Source: Escherichia coli (lineage in GTDB: Bacteria; Pseudomonadota; Gammaproteobacteria; Enterobacterales; Enterobacteriaceae). From it: a stretch of 64,000 nt of DNA. The stretch is from NCBI RefSeq assembly GCF_003018115.1, contig NZ_CP027457.1; one strand, 5' to 3'. The translations under genes and the position numbers were made by a program. The notes beneath the pieces are model-generated. The model saw nothing but the letters and a program-made list of their open reading frames with translations, was not told where the DNA came from and did not search any database. Numbering within the stretch: the first letter of the stretch is position 1; every line of letters starts with the position of its first letter. Shown piece by piece: positions 24,203 to 42,679 of the stretch.

Positions 24203-24431
24203 GCAAAAAAGCTCCCGAAGGAGCCTTCATTTTCACTTTTTTAAATCCAACGACAGACGGCTGGCATTTAAGTATTGTGAAATATTATCAAATGTAATCA
24301 TCATTGATTTACAAAAGATACATTTTGCCCCGAAAGGATTCATGTCAGAAACATCAAAAGATGATGTTCTATACTGGGAACCATGACAACACGGGCATCT
24401 AAAGTGAATATGGTTTGTAATATTGTCTACC

Positions 24432-24644
24432 TCAAAGCGCCACTACATGAACAGCGGCAGGACCTTTAGGTCCGTTCTCAATACCAAATTCAACTTCCTG
24501 ATTCTCAGTTAATGTTTTGAAATCGTTGCTCTGAATTGCTGAGAAATGGACAAACACATCTTTGCTGCCATCTTTCGGCGTGATGAAACCAAAACCTTTT
24601 TCAGGGTTAAACCATTTCACTAAACCAGTCATTTTGTTAGACAT
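24432..24644 (-). CDS. cspI: Cold shock protein CspI
   Basis: 70 aa CspA-family sequence [23 protein letters not shown]. Confidence 0.9.
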
Positions 24645-25006
24645 AATTATTACCTTTTGAAGAAATTAGCCCTTGGGCAGAATGGTCCGAAAAAAAATAT
24701 CAGAGAGAAAAACCAACAAGGAAATCTCAAGAGGTACAAATAATAAAATTATAACAATGACTGCTTCAGATAAATTTGTAACAAACCAGAACACCATTAA
24801 CGCATGATTAACCACCCATAGCAAGGATTACTTTTGTAAAGAAAAACACAGCAATGAAAGAATAGCTTTATTTATTAATAAAACGTGTCATTCTGATTAA
24901 GACCTTTTATCTTACCCTTAAGATTTCAGGAATTTTGGCTCATGGAAGAGTCCTTTTTATTTAAATTTTACATTCCGCGATGTAAATGTTCCGATTTAAT
25001 ATTACC

Positions 25007-27045: not shown

Positions 27046-27315
27046 GCTTTTTGTGGGAGTCATCCACTTACGCACTTTGTTTTGCCATGCCAGCAGTTAG
27101 CTTCTGCTGTAAAACTATTCATGCAGCAAACCTGCACTTCACCACAATGGTTAGCATACTTTTCCTGATTAAGATTTTGCCAAATATGCTAGCCATTGTT
27201 TCATGTATTGGACCTCCTTACTTTTTATTAAAGAGATCCAATATTCACTACTCTGTCCGTATCTCTACTCAGGCATCAGCCTTCTTCGTTATCGTATACA
27301 GACGAGCGATGAATT

Positions 27316-27531
27316 TTAATCAGTAATGATGACATTTGCTGCTGCAGGACCTTTAGCACCACTCTCTATAGAGAAGGTAACCTTTTGACCTTCAAATAAG
27401 GTTCGATAATTATCATTCTGAATCGCAGAAAAATGCACAAACACATCTTTACTACCATCAACAGGAGAAATAAAGCCGAAACCTTTATCAGCGTTAAACC
27501 ATTTTACTAAACCAGTCATTTTATTTGACAT
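27316..27531 (-). CDS. cspB: Cold shock protein CspB
   Basis: 71 aa CspA-family sequence [23 protein letters not shown]. Confidence 0.9.
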
Positions 27532-27831
27532 TCTACATTCCTTAACTTGAGCCTTTCGGCATAAATGGTTTGCATAACAGAAACGACTTCGTACTTAATT
27601 GGAGAGACTCAAAGAAGGAATAAGTGAATAACACCTGAAATGAGAACTGCTTTAGTAAACTACTTCGTATATCGTCTGTTCTTCAAACCGACGCAATCAT
27701 TAACGCATAGTTGAACATATGAAGCAATGTTTATTTTAGACATCCAGCCATCTTCAACCCCATCAAAAAACTATAGCTTTCTTCAGGAACGTGTGTATAG
27801 TGCGCCAAGTTATCAGTATTAAGGAATTTTT

Positions 27832-29248: not shown

Positions 29249-30281
29249 TTGTCAGCGCGCGATCGATAAAACGAAATATCAGCTCCAGTTGGGAGCCATA
29301 CTTATCTTCAAATGCCACTGTATCCGTATGCAGCTCGTTGTGATGCTTTCTGCACAAAGGCAACACAAAGAGATCATGTGCTTTTGTTCCCATTCCGCCC
29401 TGCCCGTGACCAATCAGATGATGCGGATCGTCGGCTGGCATACCGCAGCAAGCACACGGCTGTGTCTTAACCCAACGTGTGTATTTCTCCTTAACCCAGC
29501 GGCGACGTTTAGGCAGCTTCATGAAAGATTCCGGAGACTCTGGATCAACGGTGATGCTTACCACCGTCTTTTCCTGTGGTGATTTTTGTTGCTGGTGGGC
29601 GTAAGGCAACGGTGCAAGATTTTTTGTGCGTTGTTTCAATATGCTGGTGGCGGTCTGCTCTCCCGGTACGATGTCGCTTTCGCGGTACACCGAGCAGATT
29701 TTTTCCGCTGGTAATCCCAGCGAACGACGCGATACAGCCTCAGGTAGTGCATCCACCACCTGATTGCAGACCGCCCACCAGGATAATTCAGCCAAAGATA
29801 ATTCCCGCTCCTGCGTACCGCTTATTGCGTGACGGATGACGTCAATCACCCATGCTGTCAGATTTTGTTGAGCAAGCAGCTCCAGTGATTCCGATGTCTG
29901 GTCACGCAGTTGGTTGTCGCAGTGCCAGCACAACACCATTGCGCCGGTACCATAACGGTGAATGACTGTTTCAGTGTGATGGTAATCGCCATTAGGCCAC
30001 TGGCAGGATGTAACATGACGTAATAGCCAGTCGGACAATGCGCCAACGCCGCCAGCAGCACGAATCACCCGTTCGTTACTAAAAAACGGCAGCAATGTTT
30101 TGTCTTCCGCCAGCGGCTGGCGAACGGCAGGAACGACTCCGGATGGCAGATTACGCATGCTTTTTGGTTCCGGTTCCACCAGCACTCGAGGATTATGAAA
30201 TATCTGTATGGATTCACGGCCCGGCTTAAGGACCACCAGCCCAAGCTCAGGCACCAGAACAGGTCTAAGTAATACCCGCAC
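29232..30281 (-). CDS. ydfU: YdfU-like DUF968 protein with C-terminal HNH-like Cys/His motif
   Basis: ORF track 29232-30320; trimmed to GTG with GGAGG Shine-Dalgarno, giving 349 aa. Confidence 0.75.
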   Translation of the reverse strand: MRVLLRPVLVPELGLVVLKPGRESIQIFHNPRVLVEPEPKSMRNLPSGVVPAVRQPLAEDKTLLPFFSNERVIRAAGGVGALSDWLLRHVTSCQWPNGDYHHTETVIHRYGTGAMVLCWHCDNQLRDQTSESLELLAQQNLTAWVIDVIRHAISGTQERELSLAELSWWAVCNQVVDALPEAVSRRSLGLPAEKICSVYRESDIVPGEQTATSILKQRTKNLAPLPYAHQQQKSPQEKTVVSITVDPESPESFMKLPKRRRWVKEKYTRWVKTQPCACCGMPADDPHHLIGHGQGGMGTKAHDLFVLPLCRKHHNELHTDTVAFEDKYGSQLELIFRFIDRALTIGVLA

Positions 30282-30282
30282 G

Positions 30283-30561
30283 TTACCTCCAGATCCGTTG
30301 CTGGAAAGTGCGGGACGCACGTGGTGGGCGTTCGGAATAAGGCAGCCTGACAGAGATTATCCAGTGCCGATAGTCGAGACTGAGAGCTTTCTTAACCTCG
30401 AACCCGCGCCTGCGGTAAGAATGAATCAGCCATTCGGCCTGTTCTGCAGTGCATGGAGGGTGCTGGAACCATTCAGACTTGAATGCGTGAGAATACCGCC
30501 CGTGCGTGCAGGCAAGAACGGGCGAATTATCAGAATTGTAATATTTTGCGTTGCGTGCCAT
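30283..30561 (-). CDS. Hypothetical 92-aa protein, translationally coupled to ydfU
   Basis: ORF stop lies 1 nt from ydfU GTG start; no family recognised. Confidence 0.4.
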   Translation of the reverse strand: MARNAKYYNSDNSPVLACTHGRYSHAFKSEWFQHPPCTAEQAEWLIHSYRRRGFEVKKALSLDYRHWIISVRLPYSERPPRASRTFQQRIWR

Positions 30562-30627
30562 CGGTTTTCTCCGGTGGCACGGTGTTACTCAGCGGGAGTT
30601 CAGCCCCGCGCAAGATTGTAGATGAGT

Positions 30628-30879
30628 TTATTCTCCTGAAAAAGCAGAAAAGCCAGCTTTTATTCCGATCTCTTTCAATGCCTGTAATGAAGTGACAAAC
30701 TCACCTTCGCGCAAGATAAATCCGTCCGTGACCCGAGCATCCACAAAATTAATTAACGCAGCCCCATTCTTTCGCAAACACATAATGCGGTAATGACTAA
30801 CAAGATTTCCATTTTCAACGCACACAGCATAGAGGCCATCTTCACAAAAAATTTTACGCAGTTCTTCGATGTTCATCAT
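30628..30879 (-). CDS. Small prophage protein, possibly Rem
   Basis: 83 aa MMNIEELRKIFCEDGLYAV; position between ydfU and hokD; identity recalled with low certainty. Confidence 0.45.
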   Translation of the reverse strand: MMNIEELRKIFCEDGLYAVCVENGNLVSHYRIMCLRKNGAALINFVDARVTDGFILREGEFVTSLQALKEIGIKAGFSAFSGE

Positions 30880-31095
30880 CAGAATCCTTCCGGATAATTA
30901 GCTCTCCCCTTTAAGGGACCATCCCTCTTATCCCTGCGCGCTACTTAAGTATTTTTGATTCTATTCCGGCACCGTCCAGAACTTCAAACGCGTTGAAAAT
31001 AAAAACAAAAACCCGCCGAAGCGGGTTAAGTGCGGGTGCGTTGAGGATGCCTGCCACATCAGAGGTGGCGAGGGATTTCTCCCCCGCCGGGTCTC

Positions 31096-31251
31096 TTACT
31101 CCTCAGGTTCGTAAGCTGTGAAGACAGCGACCTCCGTCTGGCCGGTTCGGATTCGTACCTCGCAGAGGTCTTTCCTCGTTACCAGTGCCGTCACTATGAC
31201 GGTTAAACAGATGACGATCAGGGCGATTAACATCGCCTTTTGCTGCTTCAT
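31096..31251 (-). CDS. hokD: Hok-family type I toxin HokD (RelF)
   Basis: Hand-translated 51 aa MKQQKAMLIALIVICLTVIVTALVTRKDLCEVRIRTGQTEVAVFTAYEPEE; antisense Sok RNA expected just upstream on plus strand. Confidence 0.85.
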   Translation of the reverse strand: MKQQKAMLIALIVICLTVIVTALVTRKDLCEVRIRTGQTEVAVFTAYEPEE

Positions 31252-31322
31252 AGCCTGCTTCTCCTGTCAACGCAAAGCAGAAGTGTCACCTTCGGTGCGA
31301 AACAGAGATGTCATGCTTTGGT

Positions 31323-31610
31323 TCAGAGAATGCGTTTGACCGCCTCGCTATATACTTCCGAGCGTTCTCTTTTCCCAACAGAAATCACGAAAACGACAAC
31401 TTTCTCGTCTATAACCTGGTATACAAGGCGATAGCCTGAAGACCGGAGCTTAATCTTGTAACAATCAGGCATACCACGGAGCTTGTTTGCTTCAATCCGG
31501 GGTGACTCAAGTACTTCAACCAGCTTCTTTTTCAACTGTTCACGTACCGTCGAGCCCAGCTTTCGCCATTCCTTTAGTGCCCGCTCGTCAAAATCCAGAA
31601 AATACGCCAT
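31323..31610 (-). CDS. relE: RelE mRNA interferase toxin
   Basis: 95 aa, RelE sequence. Confidence 0.9.
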   Translation of the reverse strand: MAYFLDFDERALKEWRKLGSTVREQLKKKLVEVLESPRIEANKLRGMPDCYKIKLRSSGYRLVYQVIDEKVVVFVISVGKRERSEVYSEAVKRIL

Positions 31611-31849
31611 CAGAGTTCATCCAGCGTCACACGTACTGGCTTAGGATTACGAAGCCGTTCTTTCACTATCTCCACAAGTTCAGCATCTTCATCACTCAGG
31701 AGTGTCTGTTTGAACGGCAAGCGTTCATTGTCAGCGATATACTCGAGCATGAGACGAAGCGCTTCAGAAGGAGTTACACCCATTTTTTCAAGCGCGGCGT
31801 AAGAACGCGCTTTAAGTTCATCGTCAATACGCAGGTTAATGCTACCCAT
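31610..31849 (-). CDS. relB: RelB antitoxin
   Basis: 79 aa, RelB sequence; 1-nt overlap with relE. Confidence 0.9.
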   Translation of the reverse strand: MGSINLRIDDELKARSYAALEKMGVTPSEALRLMLEYIADNERLPFKQTLLSDEDAELVEIVKERLRNPKPVRVTLDEL

Positions 31850-31873
31850 GTCTTACACCTCTTGTAATTACAA

Positions 31874-32179
31874 ATGTCATTACAAGTATCGCACTACAAC
31901 ATGCTTAGGGCAAGTCACGAAGGAAGTCAGAAAGTAGTCGTAAGAACGGTGATCACTGTCCGCTTTGTGCCAGGAGCAGCCATTGCTAAGTCCATCCTGT
32001 ATTGTGCAGGTCAGCTCGTTTTTAAAGAGTCCGGCCATCATCTTACTGGTACAGACACCATATACTTTGTGACGGTCAGGCTACATATGCACAACTCAAC
32101 TTATTCATCTATTTTTTGCTTTAGCATGTCAGTGTTGCTTTCTCGTCGGCGGGTGAGCGGTGACCTGACCTGTCGATAA
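31874..32179 (+). CDS. Hypothetical protein at the ydfV position
   Basis: 101 aa ORF, low-complexity, weak coding appearance. Confidence 0.35.
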   Translation: MSLQVSHYNMLRASHEGSQKVVVRTVITVRFVPGAAIAKSILYCAGQLVFKESGHHLTGTDTIYFVTVRLHMHNSTYSSIFCFSMSVLLSRRRVSGDLTCR

Positions 32180-32381
32180 AGGAACGTAACACGTTTTATG
32201 CAACACCCGCATGCGGCAGAAAATTATTGCCGAACGTTTACCCCTGTCAACAAGCTTTACTTTCTGAGGCGCGCCAGCCCGCGAGGAAAACAATCTGAAC
32301 ATCAAACAATTAATGACACAAGAAATACGATTAAAGATTTTTTTGTGCATGCCGATAGTGCTTTTTTAAAAGGAGAAATCT

Positions 32382-32714
32382 ATGTCTGTCACAATTCAGG
32401 GAAATACCTCAACCGTTATTTCAAACAACTCCGCCCCGGAAGGAACATCAGAAATAGCCAAAATCACAAGACAAATTCAGGTGCTGACTGAAAAGCTTGG
32501 GAAAATCTCATCGGAAGAGGGGATGACGACACAGCAGAAAAAAGAAATGGCTGCATTGGTACAGAAGCAAATTGAAAGCCTCTGGGCTCAACTGGAGCAG
32601 TTGTTAAGGCAGCAGGCAGAGAAAAAGAATGAAGACGCGACAGTTCAGCCTGATAAAAAAGAAGAGAAAAAAGACGATACAAATACCGCTGGCACCATTG
32701 ATATTTACGTCTAA
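32382..32714 (+). CDS. flxA: FlxA (FliA-regulated protein)
   Basis: 110 aa MSVTIQGNTSTVISNNSAPEGTSEIAKITRQIQVLTEKL. Confidence 0.85.
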   Translation: MSVTIQGNTSTVISNNSAPEGTSEIAKITRQIQVLTEKLGKISSEEGMTTQQKKEMAALVQKQIESLWAQLEQLLRQQAEKKNEDATVQPDKKEEKKDDTNTAGTIDIYV

Positions 32715-32724
32715 GTGACAGCCG

Positions 32725-32752
32725 TATTGTGGCCCTCATCGGGCCACTTTTC
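32725..32752 (+). terminator. Rho-independent terminator after flxA
   Basis: TGGCCC-TCATC-GGGCCA stem followed by T-rich run. Confidence 0.5.
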
Positions 32753-32899
32753 GCCATCAGCCTTTTCTTTAAAGACATATTATCTTTGTATCATTTCTGA
32801 TAGTTAACATTACAAGATATAAGTAATGGACGCACTCCCAATTAGTCTATTTAAATCGCCACGAGTTTAACTGACAACCCATGATCAATTATGAATTGC

Positions 32900-34600
32900 A
32901 ACTATTTCTGTAGTCACTTTTGTGGGGACAGTCCACAAAACTGCCAACTTCCGCTTCTTGCTCTTAGCGGACATTAGCATAGGCTATTTACCATAACGCC
33001 TCATTACGCGCACCGCCCAGACTGACTCAGCGCGTTTCTGGCATATCCCCGGTAAAACAAGTAACAAACCACCCGAAAATGAACACCAGAAACGCGACTT
33101 AAGAATCTACCCTATGAATGGATATGCACTCAACCGAATCGATCTTGGTTTCAATCTTTTTTATCGGGATCAGGCTTCTTTTTAGGTAACTTCGGGGGCT
33201 TAACTTGCTGATGACTTTGCGTTCGGCGCGTAAGCCAGGGATGGTCAGCTTTAGGTTTAACATAGTATTTTGAGCGTAAATCAATACGGGCATTATCCAC
33301 TCGTTCATGGACACTCTTTTCATCATCCAGTGGTATAGGCTCCGGGCCATCAACATACTTTTCCCAGCCCAGCGCTTTCCCGTCATACAGAACGTTAATT
33401 TCACCGTCAAAGTTCTCGCATACAGTAACAACCGAATGCCTAAGTCGATATCCCCGGCCCTCACTGCGTACCTGAAACGCACTGCTTTTGTACTGGAAAG
33501 TGAGATTTTTAGACAGAACGCGCTTCGCCTGTAGGCTGAAGATATAACCCAGTTCCTCTTCAGAATGGTGCACATCAAGATGAGCATTATCAGTAGTACG
33601 AGGCGACGTAGCGAACCGGTTGTTATAGGCTTCAATAAAGGTCGGCAACCATGCATTTGCTGTTTCAATATCACTGATATTCTGAAGCCGCATTTCTTTG
33701 ACCAGCCTGTCCTGTAGTGTCTGATTGGCGCGCTCTACCCGCCCTTTTGCCTGCGGGCTGTTGGCATGGATTGGCTCGATGCCCAGTGTCTTTATCGCAC
33801 GAGTGAACTGGGTCAGCTCACCTTCCCGCTCTGGGTTATTTACCCTGAATATACTGTGTCTATCAGAGTAGAGAGCGAGCGGTACGCCATGATCATTAAG
33901 GTAACCCCGGAGGGTTTCCATGTAAGCCCGGGTTGTTTCAGCAGGCACAAAACGCAACGCCATCAACGCACTGGTGGCATCATCAATGAAAACGATCAGT
34001 GTACATCTGGGGCCTCGATTTTCAAACCAGTCATGAGGTGAGCCATCAATCTGGATCAGTTCACCGTAAGATGGTCGTCGCATGCGGCGTTGATATATAC
34101 GGGCAATTTTACGACGGCGTTCACGCCATAACCCCTCTTCTATCATCCACTTTCTGAGAGTTTCAACGGATAAAGATAAACCGTGTATCTCGCGCAATTT
34201 TTCGCACGCAAACGTAGGTCCAAAATCAGCGTAACGGCCTTTGAGGAGTGAAATTACTGTTGCTCTGAATTCAGTAGAAAAGGAATTATTAGGACGCTTT
34301 CCACGTCGGTGGGAAACCAGACCAGAAGGCCCTTCATTTCTATACCGTTGCACCAGACGTTTAACCTGCCGAATAGAAATGCCAATGCGTGCCGCAGCTT
34401 GTTCCTGAATAATCTGAAGTCGGTGGAGTTCCTTATGACTCATCGTAACAGTCTCTTTGATCATGAAAAATCCCCCAGAGAATTGTCTGGGGACATTTTA
34501 GAATGGTTCAAAGGGGACATTACAGCTTGGTGTTAACAATAGCCTGCTTCTCCGTGCCTTTCGGCACGTAAGAGGCTAACCTACATGTGTCTAGCATGAA
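32900..34600 (-). mobile_element. Insertion sequence carrying a single DDE transposase (IS481/ISNCY-type); ends not resolved
   Basis: Single 437-aa transposase ORF; terminal inverted repeats could not be assigned by eye. Confidence 0.55.
33151..34464 (-). CDS. DDE transposase with N-terminal HTH and integrase-core (rve) catalytic domain
   Basis: 437 aa; D (IQIDGS), D (YSDRHS), E (GRVERANQ) triad spacing typical of rve. Confidence 0.85.
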   Translation of the reverse strand: MIKETVTMSHKELHRLQIIQEQAAARIGISIRQVKRLVQRYRNEGPSGLVSHRRGKRPNNSFSTEFRATVISLLKGRYADFGPTFACEKLREIHGLSLSVETLRKWMIEEGLWRERRRKIARIYQRRMRRPSYGELIQIDGSPHDWFENRGPRCTLIVFIDDATSALMALRFVPAETTRAYMETLRGYLNDHGVPLALYSDRHSIFRVNNPEREGELTQFTRAIKTLGIEPIHANSPQAKGRVERANQTLQDRLVKEMRLQNISDIETANAWLPTFIEAYNNRFATSPRTTDNAHLDVHHSEEELGYIFSLQAKRVLSKNLTFQYKSSAFQVRSEGRGYRLRHSVVTVCENFDGEINVLYDGKALGWEKYVDGPEPIPLDDEKSVHERVDNARIDLRSKYYVKPKADHPWLTRRTQSHQQVKPPKLPKKKPDPDKKD

Positions 34601-34798
34601 ATTGGCCTCAGATTAATGTTAAGCGTCTTGCAGGACGCGTAATGTTAACTGGGGCTTTTCTCTATCTGCCGTTGGTGTCCATGCCCGAGGCAGATAGCCT
34701 CAAGCACCCGCAGTCATTCTACTTAACTAAGATTTCCCCGCAAACCGTTTTTGTCCAGCACAGTAAATATCCAACTAAACCAATGGAGTTCGCTGTAT

Positions 34799-34978
34799 TT
34801 ACCGCCAGTATTCAATGCACATGACCGCCATGAACACCCCTAAAAAAAGGGCATTTATATATCCAAATATTAATATCAAAACATCAACTTTTTCCATATA
34901 CCTTGCTGTGAAGATGATGGGCATACATGATGCGAACAACCAGAACGCAACAAACAAAAACTGCAATGCGTTTTTCAT
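34799..34978 (-). CDS. Candidate small two-TM membrane protein (59 aa)
   Basis: AGGAGG Shine-Dalgarno 4 nt before ATG; MKNALQFLFVAFWLFASCMPIIF...; no homolog recognised. Confidence 0.35.
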   Translation of the reverse strand: MKNALQFLFVAFWLFASCMPIIFTARYMEKVDVLILIFGYINALFLGVFMAVMCIEYWR

Positions 34979-35652
34979 TATTCCTCCTACAATCAATGTG
35001 CAATTACATTTAAACACACCTCAATTTGGCCGGACATATAAATATCTAAACCAGAAAAAATCACTTACATAGCGTTACAAACTCTTTAGTCTAAAGGTTC
35101 ATCGTAAAACATTCCCCATACTTATCAGTCCGTTCCGCGCCAGGTAGCTCATTGCCTTATCTGGCAACCTGTAATCAGGTTTCCGCTTTTTCAGTTGGCT
35201 GGTCGTTTAACCGACATAGTTAATCCATTAATCTAGTTGCCGGATGTTGGTGGATTTTCGCGTTTTAGTTGTTCATAAAAGTGCACAGCTTTAACCAGTT
35301 CTTCTGATGTAACTGGGACTGGTGAGGCAGTGAATAAGGCCTGAATTTGATAGTTCGGCCTGTCGTTACAATCCTCTTTTTTCGGTACATATTTCCAGTC
35401 ACCAGACCACTACTTCCCCTGAAAGTCCGTAACGCCTTTTTTCACGTAGCGATATCGCCATGCCACTGGTTTTGCTTGCCCCGCCGTTTCATGCCCTTCC
35501 TGATAATTAATCTCGCTCATTCATCGCCCCACTCATCACAATATGCTTCGACCGGAGTTTTTCCCGCTTCATAGTCATCACGCTAGGATTCGACATCAGC
35601 AGCACTTCCACCGCGTAACTCACCATAGTCCATTAATAGTTCATCCCGCTCT

Positions 35653-35741: not shown

Positions 35742-36146
35742 ATGAAATCATTAACCGCAGTGCGTAAAAAAAGCCCTAATTATCCCGTTGAGTTCAAAAT
35801 CAAAATGGTTGAACTCTCGCATCGACCAGAGATCTCCGTAGCGCAACTCGCTCGTGAGCATGGGATCAACGATAATTTGCTGTTCAAGTGGCGCCAGTAC
35901 TGGCGCGAAGGAAAACTACGTCCTCCTTCAACAACAGAAAACAACGTGCCTGAGCTGCTCCCGATAACACTTGATGCCGAAGATGTTGTCCCTACAACCT
36001 CCCCCCGGTCACAACCTGTAGCTGCTGCGACACCTGAATCACTCAATATCAGCTGTGAAGTGACGTTCCGGCACGGATCACTCCGTCTGAATGGTGCCAT
36101 CAGCGAAAATATCCTGAACCTGCTGATACGGGAGCTCAAACGTTGA
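35742..36146 (+). CDS. IS66-family accessory protein TnpA (orf1)
   Basis: 134 aa, HTH-like N-terminus, first ORF of element. Confidence 0.85.
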   Translation: MKSLTAVRKKSPNYPVEFKIKMVELSHRPEISVAQLAREHGINDNLLFKWRQYWREGKLRPPSTTENNVPELLPITLDAEDVVPTTSPRSQPVAAATPESLNISCEVTFRHGSLRLNGAISENILNLLIRELKR

Positions 36147-36490
36147 TCCCATTACCATCAGGGACAAAGATCTGGCTGGTCGCTGGCATCACCGATATGA
36201 GAAACGGCTTCAACGGCCTGGCGGCAAAGGTGCAGACGACGCTGAAAGACGATCCGATGTCAGGTCACGTTTTTATCTTCCGTGGGCGTAATGGCAGTCA
36301 GGTAAAGCTCCTCTGGTCTACCGGCGATGGACTGTGTCTGCTGACCAAACGGCTGGAGCGCGGCCGCTTCGCCTGGCCGTCAGCCCGGGATGGCAAAGTG
36401 TTCCTCACACCGGCACAGCTGGCGATGCTGCTGGAAGGTATCGACTGGCGGCAGCCTAAAAGACTGCTTACGTCCCTGACTATGTTGTAA
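36143..36490 (+). CDS. IS66-family TnpB (orf2)
   Basis: 115 aa, 4-nt overlap with tnpA. Confidence 0.85.
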   Translation: MIPLPSGTKIWLVAGITDMRNGFNGLAAKVQTTLKDDPMSGHVFIFRGRNGSQVKLLWSTGDGLCLLTKRLERGRFAWPSARDGKVFLTPAQLAMLLEGIDWRQPKRLLTSLTML

Positions 36491-42620: not shown

Positions 42621-42679
42621 ATTTTCTGGTGACGTTTGGCGGTATCAGTTTTACTCCGTGACTGCTCTGCCGCCCTTTT
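42621..42679 (+). ncRNA. dicF: DicF small regulatory RNA (antisense inhibitor of ftsZ translation)
   Basis: Sequence TTTCTGGTGACGTTTGGCGGTATCAGTTTTACTCCGTGACTGCTCTGCCGCCCTTTTT with 3' terminator hairpin, between ydfC and dicB. Confidence 0.75.

Follow-up and report, generated by a model that had tools for sequence, protein, structure and literature searches.

A relBE-carrying transposon probably split a prophage hok/sok locus and made hokD the third cistron of the relBE operon

The window analysed here, a 64,000-nucleotide stretch of Escherichia coli contig NZ_CP027457.1 (RefSeq assembly GCF_003018115.1), carries the toxin gene hokD, also named relF, immediately beside the toxin–antitoxin (TA) genes relE and relB, all three on the minus strand (Table 1). 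HokD belongs to the Hok/Gef family, as judged by Pfam (PF01848 HOK_GEF, 82.9 bits, E=1.2e-23, cutoff 22) and by a match to the NCBIfam Hok family under the curated cutoff, and shares 42% identity with Hok of plasmid R1. RelE matches TIGR02385 RelE_StbE (54.7 bits, NCBIfam), aligns over its full length to the RelE chains of Protein Data Bank entries 4FXE (4FXE_D), 4V7J and 4V7K, and contains the catalytic residues K52, K54, R61, R81 and Y87. The relB stop and relE start codons overlap at 31610 in the sequence TGATG, and a 71-nt spacer separates relE from hokD. Over 1,051 bases around hokD-relE-relB, the window is 100% identical to RefSeq E. coli chromosomes annotated with hokD, relE, relB and ydfV, in which the setting is a lambdoid prophage with rem, ydfU and the Q-like antiterminator gene ydfT. 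The comparison loci, numbered with L, come from viral, genome, metagenome and plasmid collections, about 100 loci being sampled; HokD is annotated under accession WP_000813254.1 in the identical or near-identical DNA of L001, L002, L003 and L104. The open reading frames (ORFs), the Pfam and NCBIfam matches and the RefSeq annotation thus bear out an earlier note on this DNA in so far as it placed hokD, relE and relB side by side on one strand within a prophage.

Table 1. Features of the split hok/sok locus and of the inserted unit (positions in the window; IRL and IRR, left and right terminal inverted repeats; SD, Shine-Dalgarno sequence)
Feature	Position	Strand	Description
Intrinsic terminator downstream of hokD	31010..31027	-	Terminator scan; no other terminator-like site from the relB promoter region to rem
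hokD (relF) coding sequence	31096..31251	-	Intact, 51 aa; ORF list, Pfam, homology
Target-site duplication, copy 1	31250..31264	.	ATAGCCTGCTTCTCC on + strand, GGAGAAGCAGGCTAT in hok sense; exact 15-nt direct repeat
Right end (IRR)	31265-31290	.	TGTCAACGCAAAGCAGAAGTGTCACC; then conserved subterminal segment into the relE stop codon, to 31330
relE	31323..31610	-	95 aa, ribosome-dependent mRNA interferase toxin; PF05016 ParE_toxin
relB	31610..31849	-	79 aa, antitoxin; PF04221 RelB 112 bits, E=1e-32; NF008412 equivalog 133 bits
relBE promoter/operator region	31850..31900	-	Palindrome cttgtaatgacatttgtaattacaag at 31860-31890, inside the transposon; read from sequence
ydfV	31874..32179	+	101 aa, variable cargo; ORF and annotation
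flxA	32382..32714	+	110 aa, Pfam FlxA; variable cargo
Transposase gene (tnp)	33151..34464	-	437 aa; same direction as hok; ISNCY / IS1202-family, ISEsa1-like
Subterminal repeat GGGGACAT, second copy	34489-34507		
Left end (IRL)	34513..34538	.	TGTTAACACCAAGCTGTAATGTCCCC, read on - strand
Whole transposable unit	31265..34538	-	3,274 bp; IRL - tnp - flxA/ydfV - relB - relE - IRR
Truncated mok-equivalent ORF	34520..34597	-	25 codons, ATG at 34597, stop within IRL
Orphan hok mRNA leader	34538..34709	-	tac-like 5' end GGGUGCUUGAGG, mok start region, Sok target; RF01794 and homology
Target-site duplication, copy 2	34539..34553	.	Exact 15-nt direct repeat
Inferred Sok promoter	34554-34582	+	GTGCCT-17-TAACCT; placed by homology with the R1 Sok promoter
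Orphan Sok gene	34554..34665	+	RNA body from about 34589, terminator hairpin, T-run; boundaries approximate
Putative hok promoter	34716..34743	-	TTGCGG - 16 nt - TAGAAT; inferred from position relative to RF01794 start; below consensus-scan threshold
Putative target sequence in hok			GGAGAAGNAGGCYATG

Sequence comparison revealed that hokD and its leader occupy two separate places. The intact locus L001 aligns with the window by BLAST in two pieces, its leader at 34729..34539 (97%) and its Shine-Dalgarno sequence, hokD and downstream region at 31265..30879 (99.5%), with 16 query bases (695-710) common to both; hokD itself is 99.5% identical to hokD of uninterrupted loci. The distant leader, which differs from L001 at 5 of 191 positions, gives the only match to RF01794 (sok / hok leader) in a whole-window Rfam scan (34538-34709 on the minus strand), reaching 104.1 bits against a gathering score of 59 and spanning the full model, 1-157. 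A 77-nt stretch covering the Sok body (34574-34650) shows no difference from the intact locus and is predicted to form two hairpins (z = -3.5). In intact hokD-type loci hokD shares the frame of the mok-equivalent ATG, and the two together give 70 codons (19+51; frame read from L001), which agrees with the ancestral hokD ORF of ~70 codons described by Ramisetty and co-workers (PMC6379469). Among 5,426 complete E. coli genomes searched by megablast, many align only up to window position 31265, 14 nt 5' of the hokD ATG, and in these the classical hok leader continues upstream.

The DNA between the two halves has the anatomy of a transposon. The 15-nt repeat ATAGCCTGCTTCTCC that bounds it has only two copies in the window and a single one in uninterrupted loci, and its first copy provides the hokD Shine-Dalgarno sequence and the AT of the ATG. 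The termini (TGT...ACA, starting TGTTAACACC and TGTCAACGCA) are identical at 19 of 26 positions, the best match to the IRL in the window on either strand, and the IRR sequence also closes the related elements in L011, L051, L060, L061, L067 and L105. The encoded transposase matches the NF033594 equivalog model at 456 bits (cutoff 250) and the Pfam families HTH_32/HTH_29 and rve_3; RefSeq names it either 'IS1202-like element ISEsa1 family transposase' or 'ISNCY family transposase'. Between tnp and relB the cargo varies: plasmid copies hold cytochrome b and CDF transporter genes in place of flxA, and ydfV, for which Pfam and NCBIfam scans gave no family, is complete in prophage-type copies and reduced to a short piece in plasmid-type copies. 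With relBE and this variable cargo the units measure 3,274-4,600 bp, unlike the simple cargo-free insertion sequences (ISs) of 1.3-2.0 kb that are typical of the IS1202 family. At 34493-34472 on the minus strand, between the IRL and the start codon of tnp, there is a terminator-like hairpin with a T-run behind it; speculatively, it might insulate tnp from read-through of the orphan hok promoter.

We consider it very probable that the window holds the two halves of a prophage hok/sok locus split by a 3,274-bp relBE transposon, and that hokD has become the third cistron of the relBE operon. In this model, an IS1202-family (ISEsa1-like) element would have entered hokD where its translation begins, leaving a 15-bp duplication, GGAGAAGCAGGCTAT, of the Shine-Dalgarno sequence and AT; relBE and hokD would then be adjacent because the relBE-carrying transposon inserted there. 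The hok coding sequence would have kept its ribosome-binding site and lost its own promoter, the 5' leader (tac/ucb), the mok start and the Sok target. Conversely, the orphan hok promoter, leader, mok stub and Sok gene would have stayed 3.3 kb upstream, facing the transposase gene; the putative hok promoter is now directed into the IRL and tnp.

Transcription of hokD would accordingly be expected to start within the transposon. A terminator scan found no terminator between relB and hokD, and the palindrome cttgtaatgacatttgtaattacaag upstream of relB presumably acts as the operator; the function of the identical sequence is known in K-12 (PMC3598666). Given its own promoter and no terminator before the IRR, relBE is predicted to read through into hokD: transcription would exit the transposon, pass through hokD and end at the hok terminator, yielding a tricistronic relB-relE-hokD (relBEF) mRNA. 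Northern blots of K-12 with relB, relE and relF probes detected one full-length relBEF mRNA, the induction of which was lost on deletion of PrelBEF, and the relF part of which accumulates after cleavage (PMC3598666). The coupling of hokD to relBE is thus shown for K-12 at the level of transcription, and translation of HokD from the relBEF mRNA would presumably follow. The toxin gene would then be subject to RelB/RelE autoregulation and stand outside Sok/mok control. Consistently, Sok paired with the relBE-hokD transcript at -48, close to shuffled Sok (-45.5 +/- 3.3), compared with -148 for its own leader, indicating no specific pairing. Folding of RNA across the relE-hokD junction revealed no significant structure (z = +0.6), a value that says nothing on sequestration of the Shine-Dalgarno sequence. 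The orphan Sok is presumably still expressed. As a separate observation on this mRNA, the HokD Tyr47 codon UAC (31111-31113 on the minus strand) stands in the context UACG, the motif for A-to-I editing by TadA; a preprint on Hok diversity describes recoding of hokD mRNA to Cys at the C-terminal position corresponding to Tyr47.

Related elements elsewhere allowed us to compare insertion sites. Scans for the IRL in the viral, genome and metagenome collections yielded 95 loci; the 101 IRL occurrences across the collections fall into 25 left-flank clusters, or 33 distinct 24-nt flanks. Of these distinct flanks, 22 end in a hok Shine-Dalgarno/start region (...GGAGAAGNAGGCYAT(G)|), and four further left flanks are hok leaders with a short IS481-type remnant. 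The hok-flanked copies always run in the order hok-sense, IRL, tnp, and the insertion point shifts by 1-3 nt (AT|, ATG|, ATGATG|). An RF01794 match directly adjoins the IRL in each of 11 distinct leaders, and none does so in seven non-hok controls; the matches reach the gathering score in the window, L039, L057, L061 and L067, and E<=0.002 in L005, L006, L055, L059, L062 and L101. The transposase may thus actively recognise hok start regions, as suggested by these flanks.

Several of these copies carry the same relBE next to another hok gene. In L061, L067 and L105, the last a finished IncFII plasmid, RelB and RelE are 100% identical to those of the window and their genes border on the same IRR; the hok that flanks the element is R1-like, its product (MKLPRSTLFW...) being about 40% identical to HokD, and the middle cargo consists of cytochrome b and a CDF transporter instead of flxA/ydfV. 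Flank duplications were scored by a flexible search, as a fixed 15-nt comparison mis-scored those of 16 bp; the 16-bp duplications GGAGAAGAAGGCCATG are matched at 16/16 positions in L061 and L067 and at 15/16 in L105, and the duplication of L060, which lies at the hokD site, also matches at 16/16. Among the records of the plasmid collection, 452 contain relB-relE-IRR-hok, and about 1,800 contain the same hok alone, with homology beginning exactly at the boundary of the IRR and the duplication. The unit also occurs away from hok: L011 holds a complete unit of 98.9% identity (window 34539 to 31265) in an unrelated non-hok flank, the homology stopping exactly at the IRL and IRR.

Beside these copies we noted a few further arrangements. 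To the left of the IRL in L088, an IRR, a 15-nt target repeat GGAGAAAAAGGCTAT and an IRL follow head to tail, a tandem insertion at one hok target. ISKpn28, an IS481-family element (end TGTATGGGTCC), lies in the same hok Shine-Dalgarno sequence (AAGGAGA|) in L007:100-1350 and also in L058 and L100, a few bases from the ISEsa1-like insertion point; hok starts look like a hotspot for ISs in general. Mangrovibacter phragmitis (L051:8180-10119) holds a non-autonomous element of 1.94 kb that shares the IRL and IRR and retains the final bases of relE. This element lacks a transposase, carries other cargo (ORFs of 206 and 129 aa) and lies at a non-hok site between direct repeats that match at 13/15 positions. 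A transposase of 79% identity in L007:3001-4882 and L076 precedes another RelE/ParE toxin (57% identical to RelE) with its antitoxin, in convergent orientation; TA cargo, variously arranged, therefore seems to be a recurrent feature of this IS lineage.

Could the apparent preference for hok be a product of descent? One ancient insertion in an ancestral hok, followed by co-divergence and recombination, would account for hok-flanked copies without any target preference, an explanation that concerns the targeting claim only. The plasmid hok loci are indeed interrelated, some flank clusters may share descent, and some leaders beside the IS are truncated or rearranged. However, next to fully identical RelB and RelE and an essentially unchanged IRR, identity falls from ~100% (relBE) to ~40% (Hok) exactly at the boundary, which a single ancient insertion cannot explain. 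In the window, the flanks are 97-99.5% identical to empty sites, whereas the IS is only 89% identical to the plasmid copies. Moreover, each site has its own perfect duplication of local sequence, the insertion point is not constant, and the tandem in L088 shares the target repeat. We therefore regard a single ancestral event as very unlikely, and repeated insertion at hok start regions as the better account of the flanks.

It is likewise highly improbable that relBE, ydfV and flxA came by illegitimate or microhomology recombination, the IS being an unrelated later arrival and the 15-nt repeat mere microhomology. This explanation would be compatible with PMC6379469, in which relBE is integrated into a longer ancestral hokD ORF and which speaks only of 'integration' into hokD with no mechanism, and with the ISfinder entry for ISEsa1, a 1.6-kb element with no cargo. 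Against it, the 15-nt repeat bounds the entire unit from tnp to relE and directly abuts the TGT...ACA inverted repeats. The intact unit at the non-hok site of L011, the relBE copies beside the same IRR with differing middle cargo, differing hok targets and their own 16-bp duplications, and the non-autonomous element of L051 with the same ends and a 13/15 repeat all argue for transposition of relBE with the IS.

The region next to hokD was searched for the regulatory parts of a type I module. RF01794 was absent from 29500-33500 even at E<=10 in Rfam; as positive controls, the model scored 116 and 112 bits on the intact hokD-type prophage loci L001 and L002 and 87 bits on the R1-type plasmid locus L004. 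Sub-threshold Rfam hits in the same interval (isrK at 25 bits, rsmX and P9) all fall on the hokD terminator hairpin and were judged to be chance. A consensus promoter scan found no promoter-like site on the antisense strand near hokD (31250-31340). Of the 71 nt between relE and hokD, 66 are conserved transposon end. The hokD mRNA has no overlapping mok frame; the sole overlapping ORF (55 aa, 31103-31270), in an alternate frame that is the mok frame of R1, begins at a TTG created by the IRR with no Shine-Dalgarno sequence and was rejected as mok. hokD has kept its 3' region and terminator and has neither a promoter of its own nor a 5' tac, both of which are on the orphan leader. A complete hok/sok module with Sok and mok at about 31250-31340, standing beside an independent relBE, is barely credible: a Hok-family ORF with a good Shine-Dalgarno sequence does adjoin relE, and canonical loci, our positive controls, do have Sok and mok within about 150 nt upstream of hok, but here that space is the right end of a transposon, intact-locus homology ends 14 nt before the ATG, and the leader lies 3.3 kb off. 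Hence, of the stacked type I and type II TA loci described in the earlier note, the gene identities and the prophage setting stand, and the complete hok/sok module, with Sok and mok just upstream of hokD, does not. The absence of an antisense transcript beside hokD, named there as a sign against that reading, would be predicted from the present sequence.

Some observations weigh against a hok-directed transposon as the agent of the split. Eight distinct left flanks are unrelated to hok, so the preference is not absolute. The length of the duplication is not uniform either, the flanking repeat of L011 being only 6 bp and L039 having none; L039, the left flank of which is a different hok leader, is probably a recombinant. 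In ISfinder, ISEsa1 is listed at 1,609 bp with no target-site duplication detected and no target (PMC10132070). The consensus promoter scan flagged none of the hok, Sok and relBE promoters; it was too strict for these three and is uninformative on them. Finally, the inferred Sok -35 element (34554-34559) reads GTGCCT in place of the TTGCCT of intact loci (GGCA[A->C]GGAG). GTGCCT is found in 41 of 60 hokD-type left flanks of interrupted copies, TTGCCT in intact loci and the remaining interrupted copies, and the change may reflect decay of the orphan Sok promoter or of leftover hok Shine-Dalgarno context.

The ISfinder description can be reconciled with the unit seen here. Beyond tnp, the copies diverge into differing cargo from one common point, which would explain why no target-site duplication was detected for ISEsa1, and we infer that the true right end of the ISEsa1-like element lies beyond the cargo. 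Two candidates for a nearer end were rejected. L050, considered as a 1.63-kb core IS ending TTTGGTTGACG, is followed after tnp by the same sequence as L058 despite a different left flank, and this sequence is cargo; the motif 'TGTCAAC' at position 5677 of L007, considered as an IRR, falls within a fragment of an IS5-type transposase and was dismissed as spurious.

The whole unit is present in 759 of the complete E. coli genomes and the relB-relE-hokD junction in 1,161. E. coli genomes in which leader and hokD are contiguous and the unit is absent number in the thousands; the other matching genomes were sampled across their range, and the majority of rows in this sample correspond to a contiguous empty site, CFT073, EDL933 and S88 among them. 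K-12 laboratory strains match only up to window position 33335: their tnp is missing two-thirds of its length from the 5' end, and the IRL and the orphan leader are gone. The K-12-derived locus L104 contains the same three protein accessions and the 71-nt relE-hokD spacer; its 'ydfW' (L104:4552-5014 region) sits where the 3' end of the window's transposase gene is, with the pseudogene ydfX as neighbour, and ydfW appears to be a transposase remnant. The relBEF locus of the cryptic prophage Qin in K-12 thus shares the three proteins and their spacing with the window, which additionally keeps the intact transposase, the IRL, the second duplication and the orphan leader with Sok. The K-12 arrangement would be the product of a later deletion of the 5' part of tnp and of the orphan leader, and the window, in retaining the whole insertion, would show how it arose.

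Part of this picture is familiar. Pedersen and Gerdes reportedly observed in 1999 that hokD is without its regulatory elements. The genes, the relBEF operon and the lack of regulators beside hokD are already known, and so is the 'integration' by which relBE, probably of plasmid origin, came into hokD. The nature of the vehicle (an IS1202-family transposon), its ends, the 15-16-bp duplication, the orphan leader and Sok, the recurrence on plasmids and the preference for hok were not found in the searchable literature and appear to be new; in the searchable open-access literature neither ISEsa1 nor IS1202 is linked with hok, though absence there is not proof.

Compared with hok/sok (parB) of R1, the orphan leader fits the same Rfam model and aligns with that of R1. 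Here, however, toxin and regulator are 3.3 kb apart on separate transcription units, and the toxin mRNA is without mok start, tac/ucb and Sok target; in hokD-type loci, moreover, the mok-equivalent ATG is in frame with hok, which is not the case in R1. An intact prophage hok-sok locus presumed to be of this family, hokW-sokW of Sp5 in enterohaemorrhagic E. coli, works as a type I TA system dependent on RNase III and Hfq (PMC8621323). According to a passage of PMC7232551 that cites Pedersen & Gerdes 1999, hokA, hokC and hokE of K-12 are inactivated by IS150/IS186 near the toxin frame and outside it. These insertions likewise uncouple hok from its regulation, but they bring no cargo and no new toxin operon and are not known to be hok-specific.

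In the IS1202 family, the single large transposase, with an N-terminal HTH and a DDE/RNase H core, has 394-507 aa, the imperfect terminal inverted repeats are about 24-26 bp long, start 5'-TGT and have their inner part repeated internally, and target-site duplications measure 5-6, 15-17 or 27-28 bp depending on the subgroup (PMC10132070). A few members carry passenger genes and are termed 'transporter IS', exceptions to which the present unit corresponds, and the ISAjo2/ISAba32 subgroup targets dif/pdif (XerCD) sites (PMC10132070; bioRxiv 10.1101/2022.12.17.520857). The element of the window resembles this subgroup in its HTH and DDE transposase, the TGT...ACA ends, the second internal repeat resembling a binding site, the orientation-specific insertion at a fixed distance from a conserved plasmid site and the occurrence of tandems. 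It differs in that the target is the hok Shine-Dalgarno/ATG and not dif, that the duplication is 15-16 bp, as in the ISTde1 subgroup, and not 5 bp, and that the cargo is a TA operon positioned to read out through the IRR.

If correct, the model has consequences beyond this prophage. The relBEF operon is a textbook TA locus, and hokD is listed among the five hok/sok systems of K-12; their arrangement would be the scar of a relBE transposon. Deletions of relBE in K-12 would also affect a Hok toxin gene, which is relevant to strains with multiple TA deletions. A Hok ORF need not mean an adjacent functional type I module, and an orphan Sok may sit kilobases away. An IS group reported without target-site duplication or target is now given a likely target (hok starts), a duplication of 15-16 bp and a TA cargo. 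Because the same event is found on hundreds of large plasmids of enterobacteria, experiments can directly address whether addiction modules interfere with one another. As a tentative and rather doubtful extension, the ISEsa1-like transposon could be an adaptive 'toxin-antitoxin hijacker', which uses the hok initiation region of conjugative plasmids and lambdoid prophages as an attachment site, disarms hok/sok, substitutes relBE and puts Hok under RelB control. Were this true, the transposase gene would also stand behind a hok promoter/Sok cassette, a site-specific mobile element would be the means by which addiction modules compete, and ISEsa1 would no longer count as 'no TSD, no target' (TSD, target-site duplication).

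Further small genes lie around the orphan leader. Directly upstream of it is an ORF for a strongly hydrophobic protein of 72 aa (34799-35017 on the minus strand) with no Pfam family; in L001 and L002 the corresponding place is taken by other small hydrophobic ORFs. Two overlapping ORFs of 134 and 115 aa (35742-36490 on the plus strand), some 1 kb upstream of the leader, presumably encode proteins like the small accessory proteins of an IS66-family element. Elsewhere in the window, two cspA-type thermoregulator leaders, belonging to prophage cold-shock genes (24405-24790 and 27300-27692, both on the minus strand), and the DicF small RNA (42624-42675 on the plus strand) all reach the Rfam gathering score; DicF and the cold-shock leaders are consistent with a Qin-like prophage.

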